The position numbers and the translations under genes are program-made. The notes beneath the pieces were generated by a model. The model had not been told where the DNA came from and made no database searches. It was given only the letters and a program-made list of their open reading frames with translations. A stretch of DNA of 64,000 nt from an uncultured Candidatus Saccharibacteria bacterium (GTDB taxonomy: Bacteria > Patescibacteriota > Minisyncoccia > UBA6257): contig CAYZJA010000002.1 of the NCBI GenBank assembly GCA_964479005.1, forward strand, positions 160,001 through 224,000, written 5' to 3'. This document shows, piece by piece, positions 1,152-63,801 of the stretch (position 1 is the first letter of the stretch; each line of letters opens with the position of its first letter).

Positions 1152-1285
1152 TATACGGACACTTCTTTGAAGTTCTCAATCTTCCATGGTGGAGAGAAAT
1201 CATTCCTATCTTGCCAGGATTCTTAAGGGGAATCTGGAGATAGAAATACATTGAAACTCATAGAATTCGTTGATATATTAAAAAA

Positions 1286-1312
1286 TACGGAGGTTAGACC
1301 TCCGTATTTTTT
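1286..1312 (+). terminator. Rho-independent terminator after the Pro-rich protein gene.
   Basis: Perfect 9-bp stem tacggaggt / acctccgta with a 3-nt loop, followed by tttttt. Confidence 0.7.
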
Positions 1313-1332
1313 AATTATGTTATACTATTTTT

Positions 1333-10281: not shown

Positions 10282-10357
10282 GGGCCCGTAGCTTAATTGG
10301 TAGAGCGCCTGTGTTGCATACAGGAGGTTGTCGGTTCGAGTCCGATCGGGTCCACCA
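10282..10357 (+). tRNA. tRNA-Ala (anticodon TGC), with encoded CCA.
   Basis: GGGCCCG..CGGGTCC acceptor stem with the G3:U70 identity pair region, anticodon loop GTTGCAT, 3' ACCA. Confidence 0.85.
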
Positions 10358-10393
10358 CGTTAGACGTGGTCCACCACGTTAAACGTGGTGGAC
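10350..10393 (+). repeat. Twin hairpins that overlap the tRNA-Ala 3' CCACCA end.
   Basis: ccaccacgttagacgtggt followed by ccaccacgttaaacgtggtgg. The same paired-hairpin family follows two other tRNAs at 63343-63386 and 63757-63800. Confidence 0.6.
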
Positions 10394-11287: not shown

Positions 11288-11315
11288 TTGACTTTTAAAA
11301 AATATTTACTATAAT
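11288..11315 (+). promoter_or_regulatory. Candidate sigma70-type promoter P2 upstream of the 23S rRNA.
   Basis: TTGACT - 16 nt - TATAAT. The tandem arrangement with P1 is typical of rRNA operons. Confidence 0.55.
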
Positions 11316-12129
11316 TAAAATACTTCTATTTTAATTGCAACGTTCTTGATTTATAATCAGAAAGTTGCAATAATAAGAAGGCTGAATAAAATATGAAAAT
11401 CTTTAAAGAAAACTCTCAGAAACAAAGAAGTTGGTAGGTGTATTACACACGTATTTTAACGCCACCACTTCATGGTGGCTTTTTTAATCCAAGATTTTCT
11501 GACAGAGAGTTCACAAGAGATGACTGAACTTTGAAAACGACTGTCTTTAGTTTGTCTTTTCACTAAAGATGGGAAAGTTGTATTAAGGGCAGATGGTGGA
11601 TGCCTTGACACAGTAAGGCGATGAAGGACGCGGCGTAGCTGCGATAAGCCTCGGGAAGGTGCGTAGTAACCTTTGATCCGGGGATTTCCGAATGGGGCAA
11701 CCCATTCCGATTAATATCGGAATATCCTGATTTTAATAATTAGGAGGCGTACCTGGGGAAGTGAAACATCTCAGTACCCAGAGGAAAAGAAAACAATAAA
11801 ATACATTTTACTACTGTTGTTTAGTACTGAATAGTAGCTAAATGTATTTGTGATTCCTTGAGTAGCGGCGAGTGAAAGAGGAGAAGCCTAAACCAAGCAT
11901 TCAATTTATTGAGTATTTGGGGTTATAAGGTGGATGCGCGGAAGCTTCGGCTTTCAAAATTTAAATCATAATTAATTAAATTATCTGGAAAGATAAACCA
12001 CAGAGGGTGAAAGTCCCGTAGATGAAAATTATTATTGAATTTAGTATCTTTTCTTAATTACCTCGGGGACAGATAACCTTGAGGGAAGGATCCGGAACTA
12101 TACCGGAAAGGCTAAATACTTACTGTGAT

Positions 12130-12175
<46 letters not shown>

Positions 12176-13733
12176 GAGGGGAGTGAAATAGAACCTGAAA
12201 CCATTTTGCCTACAAGCAATCGAAGTCGAGCACTCAGTTTTCTGAGTGCTGGATAACGGTGTGCCTATTGAAGAATGAGCCGACGAGTTTATATCTACTG
12301 CTTAGATTAATTTCGTAAATCGAAAGTAGTCATAGGGAAACCGAGTGTTAATAGCGCGTCATTAATTCTTCTTTTTATCTCGGTTTTCGGGATAAAAAGA
12401 TTAATTAAAATGTAGTGGATATGAGACCCGAAGCCAGGCGAGCTTGCCATGACCAGGATGAACCCCATAGAAATATGGGTGGAGGTCCGAACCCGTGAGC
12501 CGTTCAATACTCTGGGATGAGTTGTGGTAAGGAGTGAAAAGCTAATCGAGCCTGGGAATAGCTGGTTCTCCCCGAAATAGCTTTAGGGCTAGCGGGCTAT
12601 TTATCCTTATGGGGGTAGAGCACTGGATGGTGTGTATAGGGCGAAAGCTCAGCTCACCAATCAAACTCCGAATACCATTAAGGTTATGATAGCCTAGTTA
12701 GACTATGGGGGCGAAGCTCCATGGTCAAAAGGCAACGAATCCAGATCGCAGTTTAAGGTCCCTAAATTTTGGTTAAGTGCTGTCAAAGGTAGTAATTTAC
12801 CATAGACAATTAGTAGGTTGGCTTAGAGGTAGCCATCCTTTAAAGAGTGTGTAACAACTCACTATTCGATCTTGATCTTCGGATCAAGGTGGTAAATTGC
12901 GCCGAAAATGTATCGGGGCTAAAACCAAATACCGAAAACGCGAATTTATCCCAACTAAGGTTGGGGTGAGTGGTAGGGGAGCGTTTCTTAAGCATTGAAG
13001 TTCATAACGTGAGTTTGGATGGAGCTTAAGGAAGTGAGAATGTCGGCATGAGTAACCACAATCCTGATGAGAATTCAGGACTCCGTAAACCTAAGGTTTC
13101 TTTGGCAATGACAATCAGCCAAAGGTTAGGCGGTCCTAAGGCAATGGCGAAAGCTGCAGCCGATGGACAGCCGGTTAATATTCCGGCCCTTCCATTTTTT
13201 TCGATGGGATGACGGAGTGTAGTAGATCGAGCATCTTAGTGGTCTGATGTCTTCGACCGAGAGTGTGTGTCAGGCAAATCCGGCGCATGGTCCCGATTTA
13301 TCGGGACAACTTTCAGGGTAGAAGCGAATTAAGGTTTTTCCTTAATAAGTTGATCGAGCGCACTTCCAAGAAAAATCTCTAAGAATAGGAAAATGGAATC
13401 CGTACCGTAAACCAACACAGGTAGGTGAGGCGAGTAGCCTCAGGAGAACGAGTGATTCCTCGTTAAGGAACTCGGCAAAAAAGCGGGCGTAACTTCGGGA
13501 TAAGCCCTTCCTACCTAAATTTTGCTTGCAAAGTTTAGGCAGGGCGCAGCGAAAGTTTCCCTGGCGACTGTTTACCAAAAACACAGGTCCCTGCGAAACC
13601 GTAAGGTGATGTATAGGGGCTGATGCCTGTCCGATGCCAGAAGGTTAAGAGCGTCGGTCATTTCGATTTATCGGAATGGCTAAGTGCTTGAAGCCCTGGT
13701 CAATGACAGCGATAACTATAATCGTTCTAAGGT

Positions 13734-14449
13734 GGGATACTGCCTTAGTAAAATTCGGCTATATGCTGGAACATCTGGTGTATCCAAGACTACTATGGTA
13801 TAATATGACCATAAAAATATGAGTTATAATATACCAAGTAACAATGTTTTTGGCGCAGACAATCAGCAGGAAAGACTCAGAATTGCTTATTGGATTTTAG
13901 GCTTTACTGATGGTGAAGGATGTTTTTCAATTGCTGTGATAGAGAACAAAACTACTAAATTTGGGAAACAGATTTTTCCTGAATTTGTAATTACACAAGG
14001 AGAAAAAAGTTTAACTGCATTAAAGAAAATTAAAAAATTCTTTGGTTGCGGAAACATTTTTATCAACAAACGATATGATAATCATAATGAGAACTTATAT
14101 CGTTATTGTGTACGTTCTTTACATGACTTAGATAAGAAAATAATTCCGTTTTTTGAAAAATATCAACTCCAAACGTATAAGCAAAATGATTTTTTAATTT
14201 TTAAAAAAGTCATAAAATTCATGATAAAGAAAGAACATTTAACTGAAAAAGGCAGAAAGAAAATTCTTGTCCTCCTCAGTAAAATGAACCATAGAAAAAA
14301 GCGATTTTGAGAATCCTCAGAGACTATATGCCGAACTCCAATATTATATTGGAGAAGATATAGTCCGAACTGCATAGCGATATGCAGAAATAAGCAGAAA
14401 TGTTTATTCGACCTTTAGATTGATTTTCTAGAGGTTAGTAACAAAATTG
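13734..14449 (+). mobile_element. Group I intron in the 23S rRNA at E. coli-equivalent position ~1917.
   Basis: The conserved exon sequence CTAAGGT / AGCGTAATTCCTTGTCGGGTAA is interrupted. The 5' exon ends in U, the intron ends in G, and it contains a LAGLIDADG ORF. Confidence 0.75.
13819..14310 (+). CDS. LAGLIDADG homing endonuclease encoded in intron 1.
   Basis: ILGFTDGEGCFSI matches the LAGLIDADG motif. The 163-aa protein is basic and lies wholly within the 23S intron. Confidence 0.75.
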   Translation: MSYNIPSNNVFGADNQQERLRIAYWILGFTDGEGCFSIAVIENKTTKFGKQIFPEFVITQGEKSLTALKKIKKFFGCGNIFINKRYDNHNENLYRYCVRSLHDLDKKIIPFFEKYQLQTYKQNDFLIFKKVIKFMIKKEHLTEKGRKKILVLLSKMNHRKKRF

Positions 14450-15110
14450 AGCGTAATTCCTTGTCGGGTAATTTCCGACGTGCATGAAAGGTATAACGAC
14501 TGGGGAACTGTCTCAACGAGGAGCTCGGTGAAAATGCGTGTCCAGCGAAGACGCTGGGTACCCGCAGCAAGACGAAAAGACCCTAGAAGCTTTACTACAG
14601 CTTGGTATTGAATTTAGTTTTAATCTGCGTAGCGTAGCGGGGAGACTTTGAAGTTTCGCTTTCGGGCGAGATGGAGTCGCCAATGAAACACCCGTCTTTT
14701 TGAAGCTATGTTCTAATCCCGACGGCAAAAACGTCGTGAGACAGTGCCTGGTGGGTAGTTTTCGTGGGGCGCGATCCTCCTAAAGAGTAACGGAGGAGCC
14801 TACTAAGGTTGGCTATCTGCCAATGGAAACGGCAGAGGTAGTGTAAAGGCAAAAGCCAGCTTTATAGTGAGGGAGACATCCCAAACTATTGCGAAAGCAG
14901 AGCTTAGTGACCCGATACGTCATTGTAGAATGCGTAGAGACGTCGGATAAAAGCTACTCTAGGGATAACAGGCTGGTGGAGCCCGAAAGTTCATATCGAC
15001 GGCTCCGCTCGGCACCTCGATGTCGGCTCATCTTATCCTGGGGCTGAAGAAGGTCCCAAGGGTTTGGCTGTTCGCCAATTAAAAAGATACGCGAGCTGGG
15101 TTCAGACCGT

Positions 15111-15838
15111 CGATTTGGCGGCCTAGAAGAGTAATCTTCTATGGAAAAAGTTGACTCATATAGATGAAACCCTATTACATAAATTGTATTTTAACCTGTC
15201 GTGTGGTAGGATAATATCTAGGGAAGTTTAACTTTTTTAAACGTGAAACATCTTTCAAAGACTCAATGTGCTTATATCGCTGGGTTTTTAGATGGTGACG
15301 GAAGTCTTTATATTAGGATTAAACCTAATAAGGATTATCGGTTTAACTATCAAATAGCCCCCAATATAGTATTTTATCAATCCCAAAAAGGATGGTTATT
15401 TCTTCAGAAAATTAAAAAAATGATTAGCGCTGGTTATATGAGAAAAAGAAATGACGGGATTGCAGAATATATTATTGGTGATGTAGCAACAATGTCTTCT
15501 TTGTTGAAGCAAATATCTTCATTTCTGATATTTAAAAAGAAACAAGCACAATTGTTTCTAAGAATTCTTCAAAAGAAAACAAAGGTAAAAACAAAAGAAG
15601 ATTTTATAGCTTTAGCTATAATGATTGATAAATTGGAAAAATTAAATTATTCCAAAAAAAGGCGCATTACTTCGCAAGTTGTTATCAACACGTTAAAAAA
15701 GTTGTAACCCCTTAGAGACTTGTTCTGGTTTTTACCAGAACGGAATAGAGATTTTTAATCTCTATTAATACGTCAACCTCCTAATAAAATATTAGGATGA
15801 TGGTATAGTCCATACATAAAGTAATTTATGATTATATG
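15111..15838 (+). mobile_element. Group I intron in the 23S rRNA at E. coli-equivalent position ~2593.
   Basis: The conserved exon GAGCTGGGTTCAGACCGT / CGTGAGACAGGTCGGCC is interrupted. A CG ambiguity leaves the boundaries uncertain by ±2 nt. The intron ends in G. Confidence 0.7.
15243..15707 (+). CDS. LAGLIDADG homing endonuclease encoded in intron 2.
   Basis: YIAGFLDGDGSLYI matches the LAGLIDADG motif. 154 aa, lying within the second 23S intron. Confidence 0.75.
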   Translation: MKHLSKTQCAYIAGFLDGDGSLYIRIKPNKDYRFNYQIAPNIVFYQSQKGWLFLQKIKKMISAGYMRKRNDGIAEYIIGDVATMSSLLKQISSFLIFKKKQAQLFLRILQKKTKVKTKEDFIALAIMIDKLEKLNYSKKRRITSQVVINTLKKL

Positions 15839-16173: not shown

Positions 16174-16286
16174 TTCCGCTGGTGTTTTACTTAATTATGG
16201 TCCACCTCTTCCCATTCCGAACAGAGAAGTGAAAGTAATTAAGCCCGATGATACTCTTTTGGGGAAAGTAGGGTATGCCAGCGGTT
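16174..16286 (+). rRNA. rrf: 5S rRNA.
   Basis: CCGCTGG..GGTCCACCTCTTCCCATTCCGAACAGAGAAGTGAAAG..GTAGGGTATGCCAGCGG aligns with bacterial 5S. It is followed by a T-run. Confidence 0.85.
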
Positions 16287-16522
16287 TTTTATTTTTAAAT
16301 AAGTATTTCCCCCTTCTCTCCTGCATTCCAGCAGAGACAAACAATATTCACTCGCTCTGGAAGCCTTCCGGAATTTGTTTGTATCTCTGCTTCCATTAAT
16401 GTCGTTCAGGAGCAAATACTTATTTATCTTAATATGTTATTGGTTTAAAAATTAAAAATTGGAAATTTAAAATTATACCAGCGGTTTTTTTATTTGTATT
16501 TCTTATGATATAATAGCTAACA

Positions 16523-45377: not shown

Positions 45378-45412
45378 ATTTCCGCTCTGTTTACAGAGCG
45401 GAAATTTTTTAT
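45378..45412 (+). terminator. Rho-independent terminator downstream of the priming transferase.
   Basis: tttccgctctg ttta cagagcggaaa followed by tttttt. Confidence 0.65.
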
Positions 45413-63274: not shown

Positions 63275-63348
63275 CGCGGGGTGGAGAAGTAGTATCTCAC
63301 GAGGCCCATAACCTCGAGACGCTGGTGCAATTCCAGCCCCCGCAACCA
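63275..63348 (+). tRNA. Initiator tRNA-fMet (anticodon CAT), with encoded CCA.
   Basis: Strong similarity to E. coli tRNA-fMet (CGCGGGGTGGAG..CCCCCGCAACCA), a C1:A72 mismatch, and anticodon loop CCCATAA. Confidence 0.8.
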
Positions 63349-63402
63349 CGTTAAACGTGGTTAAGGCACGTTTTACGTGCCAACCATTTAGCCCCATCGT
63401 TT

Positions 63403-63684: not shown

Positions 63685-63758
63685 GCCAGGGTAGCTCAGT
63701 CGGTTAGAGCATAGCACTCATAAAGCTAAGGTCGTGGGTTCAATTCCCACCCCTGGCA
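63685..63758 (+). tRNA. tRNA with anticodon CAT: elongator Met or Ile2 (lysidine).
   Basis: GCCAGGG..CCCTGGC acceptor stem, anticodon loop CTCATAA, T-loop GGTTCAATTCC. Confidence 0.75.
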
Positions 63759-63801
63759 CACCGTTAAACGGTGTTGAGGCACGTTTGACGTGCCACCCAA
63801 A

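Follow-up and report, generated by a model that had tools for sequence, protein, structure and literature searches.

Patescibacteria possess tiny genomes with scarce spare DNA, and yet introns, homing endonucleases and other insertions abound in their stable-RNA genes. How does a repeat come to lie on the very last bases of several transfer RNA (tRNA) genes of such a genome, and does it serve the RNA whose end it takes up? This question is raised by a stretch of 64,000 nucleotides (hereafter the window, GC content ~31%) from an uncultured Candidatus Saccharibacteria bacterium (GenBank assembly GCA_964479005.1, contig CAYZJA010000002.1, positions 160,001 to 224,000 of the forward strand), where the genes of tRNA-Ala (site 1), of the initiator tRNA-Met (site 2) and of an elongator tRNA-Met (site 3) run directly into palindromic hairpins. 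The element in question is a cassette of about 40 nt with two hairpins, whose start is the discriminator base, N73, of many tRNAs and of transfer-messenger RNA (tmRNA). Such cassettes carry the end of the gene in three copies and vary in a manner that preserves base pairing. The family is widespread at tRNA and tmRNA ends in Patescibacteria and bacteria of the Candidate Phyla Radiation (CPR) type, and we provisionally regard it as undescribed.

The gene end in three copies

The layout of the cassette follows the rule X · CGTT-W-AACG · rc(3′ part of X) · 1-4 nt · rc(5′ part of X) · ACGTT-N-AACGT · X, where X stands for the last 5-10 nt of the gene itself (N72-N73-CCA), rc for the reverse complement, and rc(5′ part of X) is usually GGC. 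Since X is repeated, the gene end is present three times, in direct, inverted and direct orientation, around two 9-nt palindromic cores. The sense transcript is predicted to fold into two hairpins of 7-9 bp stacked on the acceptor stem, the first of which pairs N73-CCA with UGGU.

This arrangement can be followed from gene to gene, and also into other genomes (fetched loci carry L-numbers, L001 being the source genome including the region just past the window end). At the initiator tRNA the direct, inverted and direct copies read CAACCA / TGGTT / CAACCA in the window, L022 and L101, and likewise in L079, there only in a second, partial copy of the cassette. At the orthologous site of L109 all three copies are altered together, to AACCC / GGGTT / AACCCC. 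The corresponding triplets are CCGACCA / TGGTC / CCGACCA at tRNA-Pro and, at tmRNA, either ACCA / TGGT / ACC(T/C) (L054/L064) or ACCC / GGGT / ACCC (L149/L150). In L079 the 9-nt end of tRNA-Arg, CGGGGGCAC, is found again as CGGGGGCAC beyond a hairpin 2 remodelled to CCCACG/CGGGGG, and at the 5′ end of tRNA-Lys in L015, X corresponds to the 5′ acceptor strand (GCTCCCA / TGGGAG / GCCCCCA). A match of at least 6 nt between gene end and tail occurs in 7 of 19 cassettes, versus 8 of 270 cross-pairings of cassettes with different X. The distal copy, X2, is decayed in L044, L059, L062, L071 and at site 3 of the window (5/7), and the same layout is built on a variant core, CGCT-N-AGCG, in L147 (a contig of 45% GC). 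We make no claim that hairpin 1 extends into tRNA-specific bases, as this is not clearly above chance; pairing one step past ACCA was counted by eye in about 6 of 15 independent cases, and in 15 of 26 cells of the alignment column.

Hairpins do abut or overlap all three gene ends of the window, as had been stated in an initial annotation of this DNA, and its further statements that the first hairpin holds the tRNA 3′ end and that a GGCACG-type hairpin follows are borne out at sites 2 and 3 (Table 1). At both sites 2 or 3 bases separate hairpin 1 from GGCACGT-TTN-ACGTGCC, and the predicted fold consists of a cloverleaf with two hairpins stacked on its acceptor stem. Hairpin 1 of site 2, where X is CAACCA (63343-63348), contains A73-CCA and is the same or nearly the same at the orthologous initiator tRNA of L022, L079, L101 and L109, while hairpin 2 shows compensatory variants in relatives (GGCCCG/CGGGCC, GGCGCG/CGCGCC and GGCTCG/CGAGCC). 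The AACCA that follows hairpin 2 (63382-63386 in the window) is preserved in the window, L022 and L101; at the initiator tRNA of L079 a first, incomplete cassette copy has AACCG and the second, partial one AACCA. At site 3 the tRNA-Met gene ends in GGC-A73 followed by CAC, hairpin 1 is also found after the orthologous tRNA-Met of L079, and the tail (ACCCA after hairpin 2) stops 2 nt before tRNA-Asp (63802).

Site 1 is built differently, and the sequence that had been quoted there as the first hairpin, ccaccacgttaaacgtggtgg, is in fact the second one (GTCCACCACGTT-A-AACGTGGTGGAC). X comprises the last 8 nt of tRNA-Ala, GTCCACCA. Hairpin 1a begins at the discriminator A73, pairs ACCA with TGGT and holds the real 3′ end, whereas the 5′ arm of hairpin 1b is a second copy of this end (GTCCACCA). 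The source of the second copy is a 19-nt tandem duplication (10350-10368 and 10369-10387, 18 of 19 positions identical). No GGCACG-type hairpin is present at this site, and its minimum-energy fold is a single nested hairpin of 18 bp (-30.2 kcal/mol, z = -8.4) that takes in 3 nt of the acceptor stem.

Table 1. The three cassettes, their tRNA genes and the neighbouring nuclease gene (positions in the window)
Site	Feature	Position	Strand	Sequence or remark	Basis
1	tRNA-Ala(TGC), CCA encoded	10282-10357	+		ARAGORN; Rfam tRNA 10282-10354
1	Hairpin 1a	10354-10370	+	ACCACGTTAGACGTGGT = ACCACGT-TAG-ACGTGGT	perfect 7-bp hairpin
1	Hairpin 1b	10369-10393	+	GTCCACCACGTT-A-AACGTGGTGGAC, 12-bp palindrome	hairpin scan
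2	Initiator tRNA-Met (C1·A72 mismatch), CCA encoded	63275-63348	+		ARAGORN, Rfam
2	Hairpin 1	63344-63362	+	AACCACGTTAAACGTGGTT = AACCACGTT-A-AACGTGGTT	hairpin scan, fold
2	Hairpin 2	63365-63381	+	GGCACGTTTTACGTGCC = GGCACGT-TTT-ACGTGCC	hairpin scan, fold
2	X2, second direct copy of the terminal 6 nt of the tRNA	63381-63386	+	CAACCA	longest common substring 6
	Stand-alone GIY-YIG nuclease gene, 89 aa	63403-63672	+		Pfam PF01541, E = 1e-13
3	Elongator tRNA-Met, CCA not encoded	63685-63758/9	+		ARAGORN, Rfam
3	Hairpin 1, begins at A73	63758-63774	+	ACACCGTTAAACGGTGT = ACACCGTT-A-AACGGTGT	hairpin scan, fold
3	Hairpin 2	63778-63794	+	GGCACGTTTGACGTGCC = GGCACGT-TTG-ACGTGCC	hairpin scan, fold
3	Tail	63792-63799	+	GCCACCCA	decayed second copy of GGCACAC, 5/7 identical

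Specificity and distribution of the family

Within the window, the pattern CACGTTNAACGTG with up to 2 mismatches gave 6 matches versus 0.55 expected, five of the six lying at the three sites, and the hairpin-2 pattern was found at two sites (4 matches over both strands) versus 0.13 expected. A covariance model was built from 28 cassettes and run without filters over the 64 kb; only the three tRNA-end sites match it (68.4, 60.6 and 37.5 bits), the next match scoring 7 bits. These scores are partly circular because the window sequences are in the model, but the absence of other matches is not. Chance is ruled out by shuffles, and an assembly artefact by the presence of the same cassette in independent JGI, ENA, NCBI and Logan assemblies. 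At gathering score, Rfam found only tRNA, tmRNA and ribosomal RNA (rRNA) in the window and 18 related loci, and none of its families over the cassettes.

When one genome per species was scanned for the twin-hairpin pattern, 24 matches were obtained, which is about chance level. Only four are true cassettes, all in metagenome-assembled genomes of Saccharibacteria or Patescibacteria (L003, L015, L022 and probably L018), the remaining ones being tandem ACGTTAC-type repeats. The gene order of L022 is that of the window (initiator tRNA, cassette, GIY-YIG gene, tRNA-Met, tRNA-Asp), L003 carries a longer hairpin containing the CCACCA of tRNA-Ala, and in L015 the cassette abuts the 5′ end of tRNA-Lys. 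Metagenomes were searched for the 17-mer ACCACGTTWAACGTGGT as well, with at least 120 loci as the outcome. About half of the matches listed are unrelated and were set aside; they belong to one conserved coding sequence (~50% GC), to one phage-like gene or to ordinary terminators. Where the contig has 32-41% GC, the 17-mer stands at one fixed offset, its ACCA being N73 plus CCA, and is carried by tRNA-Leu(CAG), Leu(CAA), Tyr, Glu, Pro, Met, initiator tRNA-Met and tmRNA, as well as by two tRNA-like 3′ halves that ARAGORN misses. The tie to tRNA 3′ ends suggested by the initial annotation has thereby proved strong, N73-CCA being embedded in many genomes.

The core hairpin itself, CGT-NNN-ACG, occurs 129 times in 485 kb of such loci, compared with 1.1 times in shuffles. 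While 24 of the 129 overlap a tRNA or tmRNA 3′ end (offset -4 to -1) and 54 lie at most 150 nt downstream of one of 79 tRNA or tmRNA genes, 10 are found just upstream of a tRNA and 65 elsewhere, including arrays of three or four (L061, L090, L110/L124) and the copies with A- and T-runs on their sides (L052, L070, L076) that are treated below. Single family hairpins also occur at both borders of the 16S gene in the source genome: ACCACGTTAAACGTGGT (L001 11349-11365) overlaps the TTGACA -35 box upstream of it, and ACCCCGTTAAACGGGGT (L001 14370-14386) follows a LAGLIDADG gene downstream of it, just before a canonical terminator. The initial annotation had foreseen neither the tmRNA cassettes, the tRNA 5′ end, the rRNA-operon borders and the intergenic arrays, nor the triplicated gene end. 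No description of the motif, or of tRNA-adjacent hairpins or palindromes in Patescibacteria, was met with in the full-text literature, the coverage of which was incomplete, and a 2026 paper on tRNA introns in Patescibacteria is silent on hairpins and CCA.

Signs of a constraint on the transcribed strand

Covariation was computed on the alignment of the 28 cassettes. Standard pairs are formed by 96.7% of stem cells, and 10 of 15 pairs vary on both sides (42 cells), one position of hairpin 2 having A-U, C-G, G-C and U-A. This level of covariation was reached by 0 of 500 shuffles, and slid controls were 23-52% paired. The loops, read in the orientation of the tRNA, are TAA (20), TTA (9), TTG (3) and TCA, TTC, TAG and TTT (1 each); their first base is always T, the asymmetric loops favour the sense strand 7:0 and the reverse-complement forms are never seen. 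In addition, 6 G·U pairs occur on the sense strand, while at most 2 cells would wobble on the opposite strand. Covariation together with the asymmetry of loops and wobbles speaks for a hairpin formed by the sense transcript, or by that DNA strand when single-stranded, rather than for a fixed duplex site. We rate this evidence as moderate, because the samples are small and related.

The protein-binding palindrome proposed in the initial annotation fits this RNA-level constraint on the sense strand less well. In its explicit form, the DNA palindrome CACGTT-N-AACGTG would be bound or cut by a dimeric protein, such as a GIY-YIG nuclease, a recombinase or an uptake-sequence receptor, and the hairpin RNA would be a by-product. 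Different loci and genomes do share perfect palindromes of 13-17 bp, one copy lies directly against the -35 box of the 16S promoter, and GIY-YIG genes repeatedly follow a stable-RNA gene plus cassette (see below). However, the compensatory stem changes, with all four Watson-Crick pairs at one position, leave no fixed recognition sequence, the loop and wobble asymmetry tracks the transcribed strand, the exact N73 register is left unexplained and most cassettes have no GIY-YIG gene nearby. We thus hold a DNA-level site to be quite improbable.

Probable read-through rather than termination

None of the three sites is followed by a U-run, which confirms the view of the initial annotation that these hairpins are no classic terminators; the sequences that follow are CTTCAAAA, AACCATTTAG and ACCCAAAG, and the sites are absent from terminator scans. 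Canonical terminators with hairpin and T-run are present elsewhere in the window (1277-1315, 11461-11479 and 45378-45405). The distance from the cassette end to the next co-oriented tRNA is 2 nt at site 3 (tRNA-Asp) and 11 nt in L044/L095, and in L015 the cassette overlaps the start of tRNA-Lys. The 16 nt (63387-63402) that separate the GIY-YIG start codon from the cassette of site 2 showed nothing promoter-like in a promoter scan. The short gaps between tRNA genes and the promoter-less spacer suggest co-transcription, and the cassette is probably read through. Note also that a motif TTAGCCCCA(C/T) between cassette and GIY-YIG start is conserved in three genomes (window 63387-63402, L079 and L109), with no Shine-Dalgarno sequence visible between cassette and start codon there.

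An intrinsic terminator was rejected on these grounds (no U-run, a location within tRNA clusters and normal terminators elsewhere). Could the cassettes nevertheless act as atypical intrinsic terminators of tRNA units, or as exonuclease stops that form the transcript ends? Stable GC-rich hairpins directly 3′ of genes, and a TATAAT-like box with a new gene after site 1, would suit such a role, as would a palindrome flanked by A- and T-runs elsewhere, which looks bidirectional (L052, L070, L076). We nevertheless consider it very unlikely, for the U-run is lacking at each of the three sites, a co-oriented tRNA follows the cassettes of site 3, L044/L095 and L015 at a distance of 0-11 nt, which leaves no room for a promoter, the GIY-YIG open reading frame (ORF) has no promoter-like site of its own, and ordinary hairpin-plus-T-run terminators are used elsewhere in the genome.

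The palindrome just mentioned, CCACGTTWAACGTGG, stands between A5 and T5 runs at L052 2447-2471, L070 9867-9891 and L076 3181-3209; as these copies look like ordinary bidirectional terminators, the core hairpin seems to serve several roles.

Turnover, and a proposed origin and function

Related loci differ in the presence of the cassette. The spacer between tRNA-Met and tRNA-Asp holds one in the window and in L079 and is empty in L022 (3 nt) and L101, and L090 has an additional cassette where L035 is uninterrupted (CCCCACCG). Tandem additions are seen at site 1 and in L038/L086. In the close relative L079, whose GIY-YIG protein is 88% identical to that of the window, the cassette of the initiator tRNA is repeated in part, over 53 nt, and hairpin 2 at tRNA-Met differs from that of the window. 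The presence/absence polymorphism, taken with the GIY-YIG link described below, points to an origin by duplicative insertion. It speaks against simple parasitism that at the initiator tRNA the cassette is kept in five genomes, with compensatory changes, although the neighbouring GIY-YIG proteins are only about 50-88% identical.

The orthologous tRNA-Met of L079 (reverse strand, region aligned to 63685-63760) is itself broken up by two insertions, of ~75 and ~105 nt; each is bounded by inverted repeats, GCCCCCACACCA and TGGTGTGGGGG, and the second holds a complete extra tRNA-like gene.

From these observations we infer function and mode of spread as follows, in the reading that we favour and to which we give about an even chance: the cassette would be a duplicative palindromic insertion element at tRNA-gene ends, kept as a structured 3′ trailer that sequesters ACCA until processing. 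It may have originated as a small non-coding, duplicative palindromic insertion aimed at C-rich tRNA gene ends; as the gene stays whole thanks to the repeated X, its end would be a safe place for landing. Later copies would have been altered by slippage and gene conversion. Transcribed as a 3′ trailer or spacer and read through, the cassette would come under selection for its RNA hairpins, which would hold the tRNA 3′ end in a helix and may insulate the tRNA fold from the downstream RNA, be it the next tRNA or the GIY-YIG mRNA. The processing or CCA-protection signal listed among the options of the initial annotation is in keeping with this, in that constraint on the sense-strand RNA would suit a trailer or processing structure. 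After cleavage has released the tRNA end, the anti-CCA strand could pair anew with X2, and the released trailer could close as a single hairpin of 11-13 bp. For the initiator-tRNA trailer of the window, ViennaRNA gives -20.9 kcal/mol to the two-hairpin state versus -15.0 kcal/mol to the 'free end' state. In all five cassettes tested the minimum-energy fold of the released trailer consists of rc(X):X2 and hairpin 2. Of the cells of the helix rc(X):X2, 66% are paired. Templated copying could account for the target-complementary arms, for instance through fold-back or a template switch at the palindromic core; alternatively, they could have been selected once the insertion was in place.

Several points weigh against an insertion element kept as a trailer. 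The arms match the local target, so that either a templated mechanism or repeated compensatory evolution is needed; the duplicated stretch varies from ~5 to 12 nt, unlike the fixed target duplications of classical transposases; and no enzyme that would mobilise the cassette, a transposase or another, has come to light. The fold predicted for site 1 is in competition with the acceptor stem. Transcription through the cassette, its processing sites and its presumed effect on tRNA maturation are read from sequence, and the conserved initiator cassette, found across relatives whose neighbouring GIY-YIG proteins share only about 50-60% identity, is no less compatible with a dedicated function in the host than with a parasite that is tolerated. 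Sampling must also be considered: most metagenome loci were chosen by a pattern containing ACCA, so that frequencies are biased, and in loci not chosen by pattern only 5 of 32 tRNA or tmRNA genes have a cassette. An apparent link of the cassette to an encoded CCA, which it would either supply or need (odds ratio 12, p = 2e-5 overall), was rejected, the loci being ACCA-selected; in the unbiased subset the proportions are 3/9 versus 2/18, which is not significant.

A dedicated host device for 3′ maturation or protection is also to be weighed, of which the duplication would be only the origin. A CPR-specific RNase or RNA-binding protein would read the CGUU-N-AACG apex, the anti-CCA strand would toggle between X1 and the decoy X2, and hairpin 2 with N73-CCA would mimic an acceptor microhelix, e.g., an RNase P-type site. 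We regard this as possible, if rather doubtful. Deep conservation at the initiator tRNA and tmRNA and three-way covariation of X1, rc(X) and X2 speak for such a device, yet only a minority of tRNAs carry the cassette and orthologues do without it (Met-Asp spacer of L022 and L101). Likewise, rc(X):X2 pairs in 66% of cells and forms in all released trailers tested, but X2 is decayed in many copies (L044, L059, L062, L071), and the two-hairpin state is ~6 kcal/mol more stable than the 'free end' state. Covariation with sense-strand bias, an apex that is conserved while the stems vary, and a variable length of the X match, which suits selection better than a transposase, again favour a host function, whereas cassettes at a tRNA 5′ end, after ORFs, beside the 16S promoter and in intergenic arrays do not, and no candidate factor has been identified.

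Association with stand-alone GIY-YIG nucleases

The GIY-YIG gene of the window (Table 1) starts 16 nt after the site-2 cassette. Its protein is a bare GIY-YIG domain, the nearest solved relatives of which are UPF0213 proteins of unknown function, and the synteny of cassette and GIY-YIG gene is the same in L022, L079, L101 and L109. Loci fetched through GIY-YIG homologues, regardless of hairpins, hold several GIY-YIG genes each, very often right after a stable-RNA gene plus cassette, namely after tmRNA in L149/L150 and L152 (tmRNA confirmed by Rfam), after tRNA-His in L151 and after a tRNA-like end in L147. Most cassettes, however, have no neighbouring GIY-YIG gene. Striking as the association is, it may mean that the two share a safe haven, that they are mobilised together, or that the nuclease is the enzyme acting on the palindromes.

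In a bolder scheme, the cassette and the small stand-alone GIY-YIG nucleases clustered at or within tRNA and tmRNA genes would make up one unrecognised mobile system: the nuclease would cut tRNA-gene ends, repair or copying would build the target-templated direct-inverted-direct palindrome, and the RNA would toggle the CCA end. We consider this combination unlikely. If it were true, it would amount to a new insertion mechanism and a new layer of tRNA 3′-end control in ultra-small bacteria.

Small GIY-YIG ORFs were also observed inside or overlapping tRNA genes (L151 9568-9816 and 3786-4055; L147 9211-9468 and 2954-3211; L105 4381-4629). In two of them the stop codon is the TAG of the tRNA D-arm TAGCTCAG, and a duplicate of the tRNA's 5′ part flanks the ORF both in L151 (~26 nt of tRNA-His) and in L105. 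These ORFs look like a mobile family that targets tRNA genes.

Comparison with known systems

Judged by analogy, the cassette appears to work most like repetitive extragenic palindromic (REP) sequences and bacterial interspersed mosaic elements (BIME), or like miniature transposable elements with inverted repeats (MITEs) turned RNA elements, and it also resembles organellar palindromes that flank tRNA genes. As in the REP/BIME repeats of Proteobacteria, the cassettes are short, dispersed and presumably transcribed palindromic repeats that occur in clusters; for both, a role as RNA hairpins (e.g., as exonuclease barriers) and spread by a trans-acting enzyme are probable. The REP-like mini-repeat family of the initial annotation was accordingly right as to a repeat family and wrong as to REP in the specific sense. 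The GTAG/GGAG 5′ tetranucleotide is absent, the alignment of 28 cassettes having ACCA or another gene end in its place, and the hairpins are in direct order, as judged by loop asymmetry and the fixed order of hairpins 1 and 2, instead of forming inverted pairs. Unlike REP, the cassette moreover stands in a fixed register with the tRNA or tmRNA end, is bracketed by a target duplication and has target-complementary arms. No gene for a RAYT (Y1 transposase) was found in the precomputed Pfam lists of the loci seen, whole genomes not having been searched. A REP/RAYT system was rejected for want of GTAG and because of the direct order of the units.

MITEs such as Correia elements share with the cassette that they are non-coding, present in multiple copies, associated with a target duplication and polymorphic for presence and absence; co-transcription with neighbours and RNA-level effects would be further likenesses, both inferred in the case of the cassette. 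In contrast to MITEs, the cassette measures only ~30-40 nt, its duplication of ~5 to 12 nt has no fixed length, and its arms are complementary to the target and not fixed terminal inverted repeats; as each core is a palindrome, the pair counts as both inverted and direct. No parent insertion sequence is known for it, a genome-wide search for an autonomous partner not having been made. The definition of a MITE thus fits the cassette loosely.

The GC-rich PstI palindromes of Neurospora mitochondria and the double-hairpin elements of Allomyces mitochondria have been proposed to be both mobile elements and transcript-processing sites (Yin et al., 1981; Paquin et al., 2000; as cited in PMC7218506). 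They are likewise small palindromic or two-hairpin repeats of a compact genome with a preference for the neighbourhood of tRNA genes, but they are organellar and unrelated to the cassette in sequence. The t-elements and other minihelix mimics that serve as RNase P/Z signals offer a further parallel, in that hairpin 2 (7 bp) with N73-CCA resembles an acceptor microhelix at an RNA junction; the cassette, however, has no T-arm equivalent and its tail is often decayed. As regards the organellar elements, we know of no report of an exact fusion to N73-CCA or of a direct-inverted-direct copy of a gene end.

Two other systems were compared. Tandem interspaced guide RNA (TIGR)-Tas systems (Faure et al., 2025, PMC12045711) also occur in parasitic bacteria, and the cassette can formally be written as CCA - 9 nt - UG units, similar to box C - spacer - box D. 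Its 9-mers are conserved palindromes (CGTTWAACG) in only two units, whereas TIGR spacers are variable, and no Nop-domain Tas gene is present in any locus annotation; a TIGR-Tas array was rejected on these grounds. With regard to a scar of an integrase attachment (att) site, the cassette does have a duplicated tRNA 3′ end, its copies being only ~30 nt apart; one and the same insert is found at more than 10 tRNA types, and the locus annotations show no integrase beside it.

A repeat that inserts exactly at the terminal bases of tRNA and tmRNA genes, restores these bases and pairs the CCA into a hairpin would represent a new kind of 'safe-haven' insertion, and it bears on how correct tRNA 3′ ends are formed in organisms with reduced RNase sets. 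There are also consequences for annotation (tRNA ends, CCA calls and missed tRNAs), and the cassette provides a compact sequence marker of the lineage. Either the toggle or the GIY-YIG link, if true, would imply a new mechanism of RNA processing or of DNA insertion.

Setting of the cassettes in the window

The window holds seven tRNA genes and one 5S gene (ARAGORN, Rfam), together with a 23S rRNA gene enlarged by insertions (11573-15141, compared with a model of 2925 positions). The 16S gene is unlinked from the 23S-5S pair and lies just past the window end. Four of the seven tRNA genes are free of cassettes: tRNA-Leu, tRNA-Ile (14 nt before tRNA-Ala), tRNA-Asp (12 nt before tRNA-Arg) and tRNA-Arg. 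The tRNA-Ile and tRNA-Ala genes lie 1.2 kb upstream of 23S and are separated from it by an MscS-like gene. Genes of LAGLIDADG endonucleases were observed inside a 23S insertion (13819-14310), between 23S and 5S (15243-15707) and downstream of the 16S gene (L001 13457-14080). Such genes in and next to rRNA genes help to place the window among bacteria of the Patescibacteria/CPR type, as do homologues named 'Parcubacteria/Patescibacteria group bacterium' and the Saccharibacteria or Patescibacteria labels of the closest genomes with a cassette.

The 3′ end of the 5S rRNA with its T-run (CCAGCGGTTTTTTAT), at 16276-16291, is found again ~200 nt downstream, at 16477-16493, and the segment between the two copies has inverted repeats of its own; this may be another insertion that duplicated the end of a stable-RNA gene. 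Finally, a block of ~90 nt (…TTAATTTCAACGTTCT…GAGAGGTTGTTATAAT) is repeated at ~11290-11400 of the window and at ~11380-11470 and ~14440-14530 of L001, where it precedes the 23S gene, the 16S gene and a response-regulator gene, and it is probably a shared strong promoter or leader.

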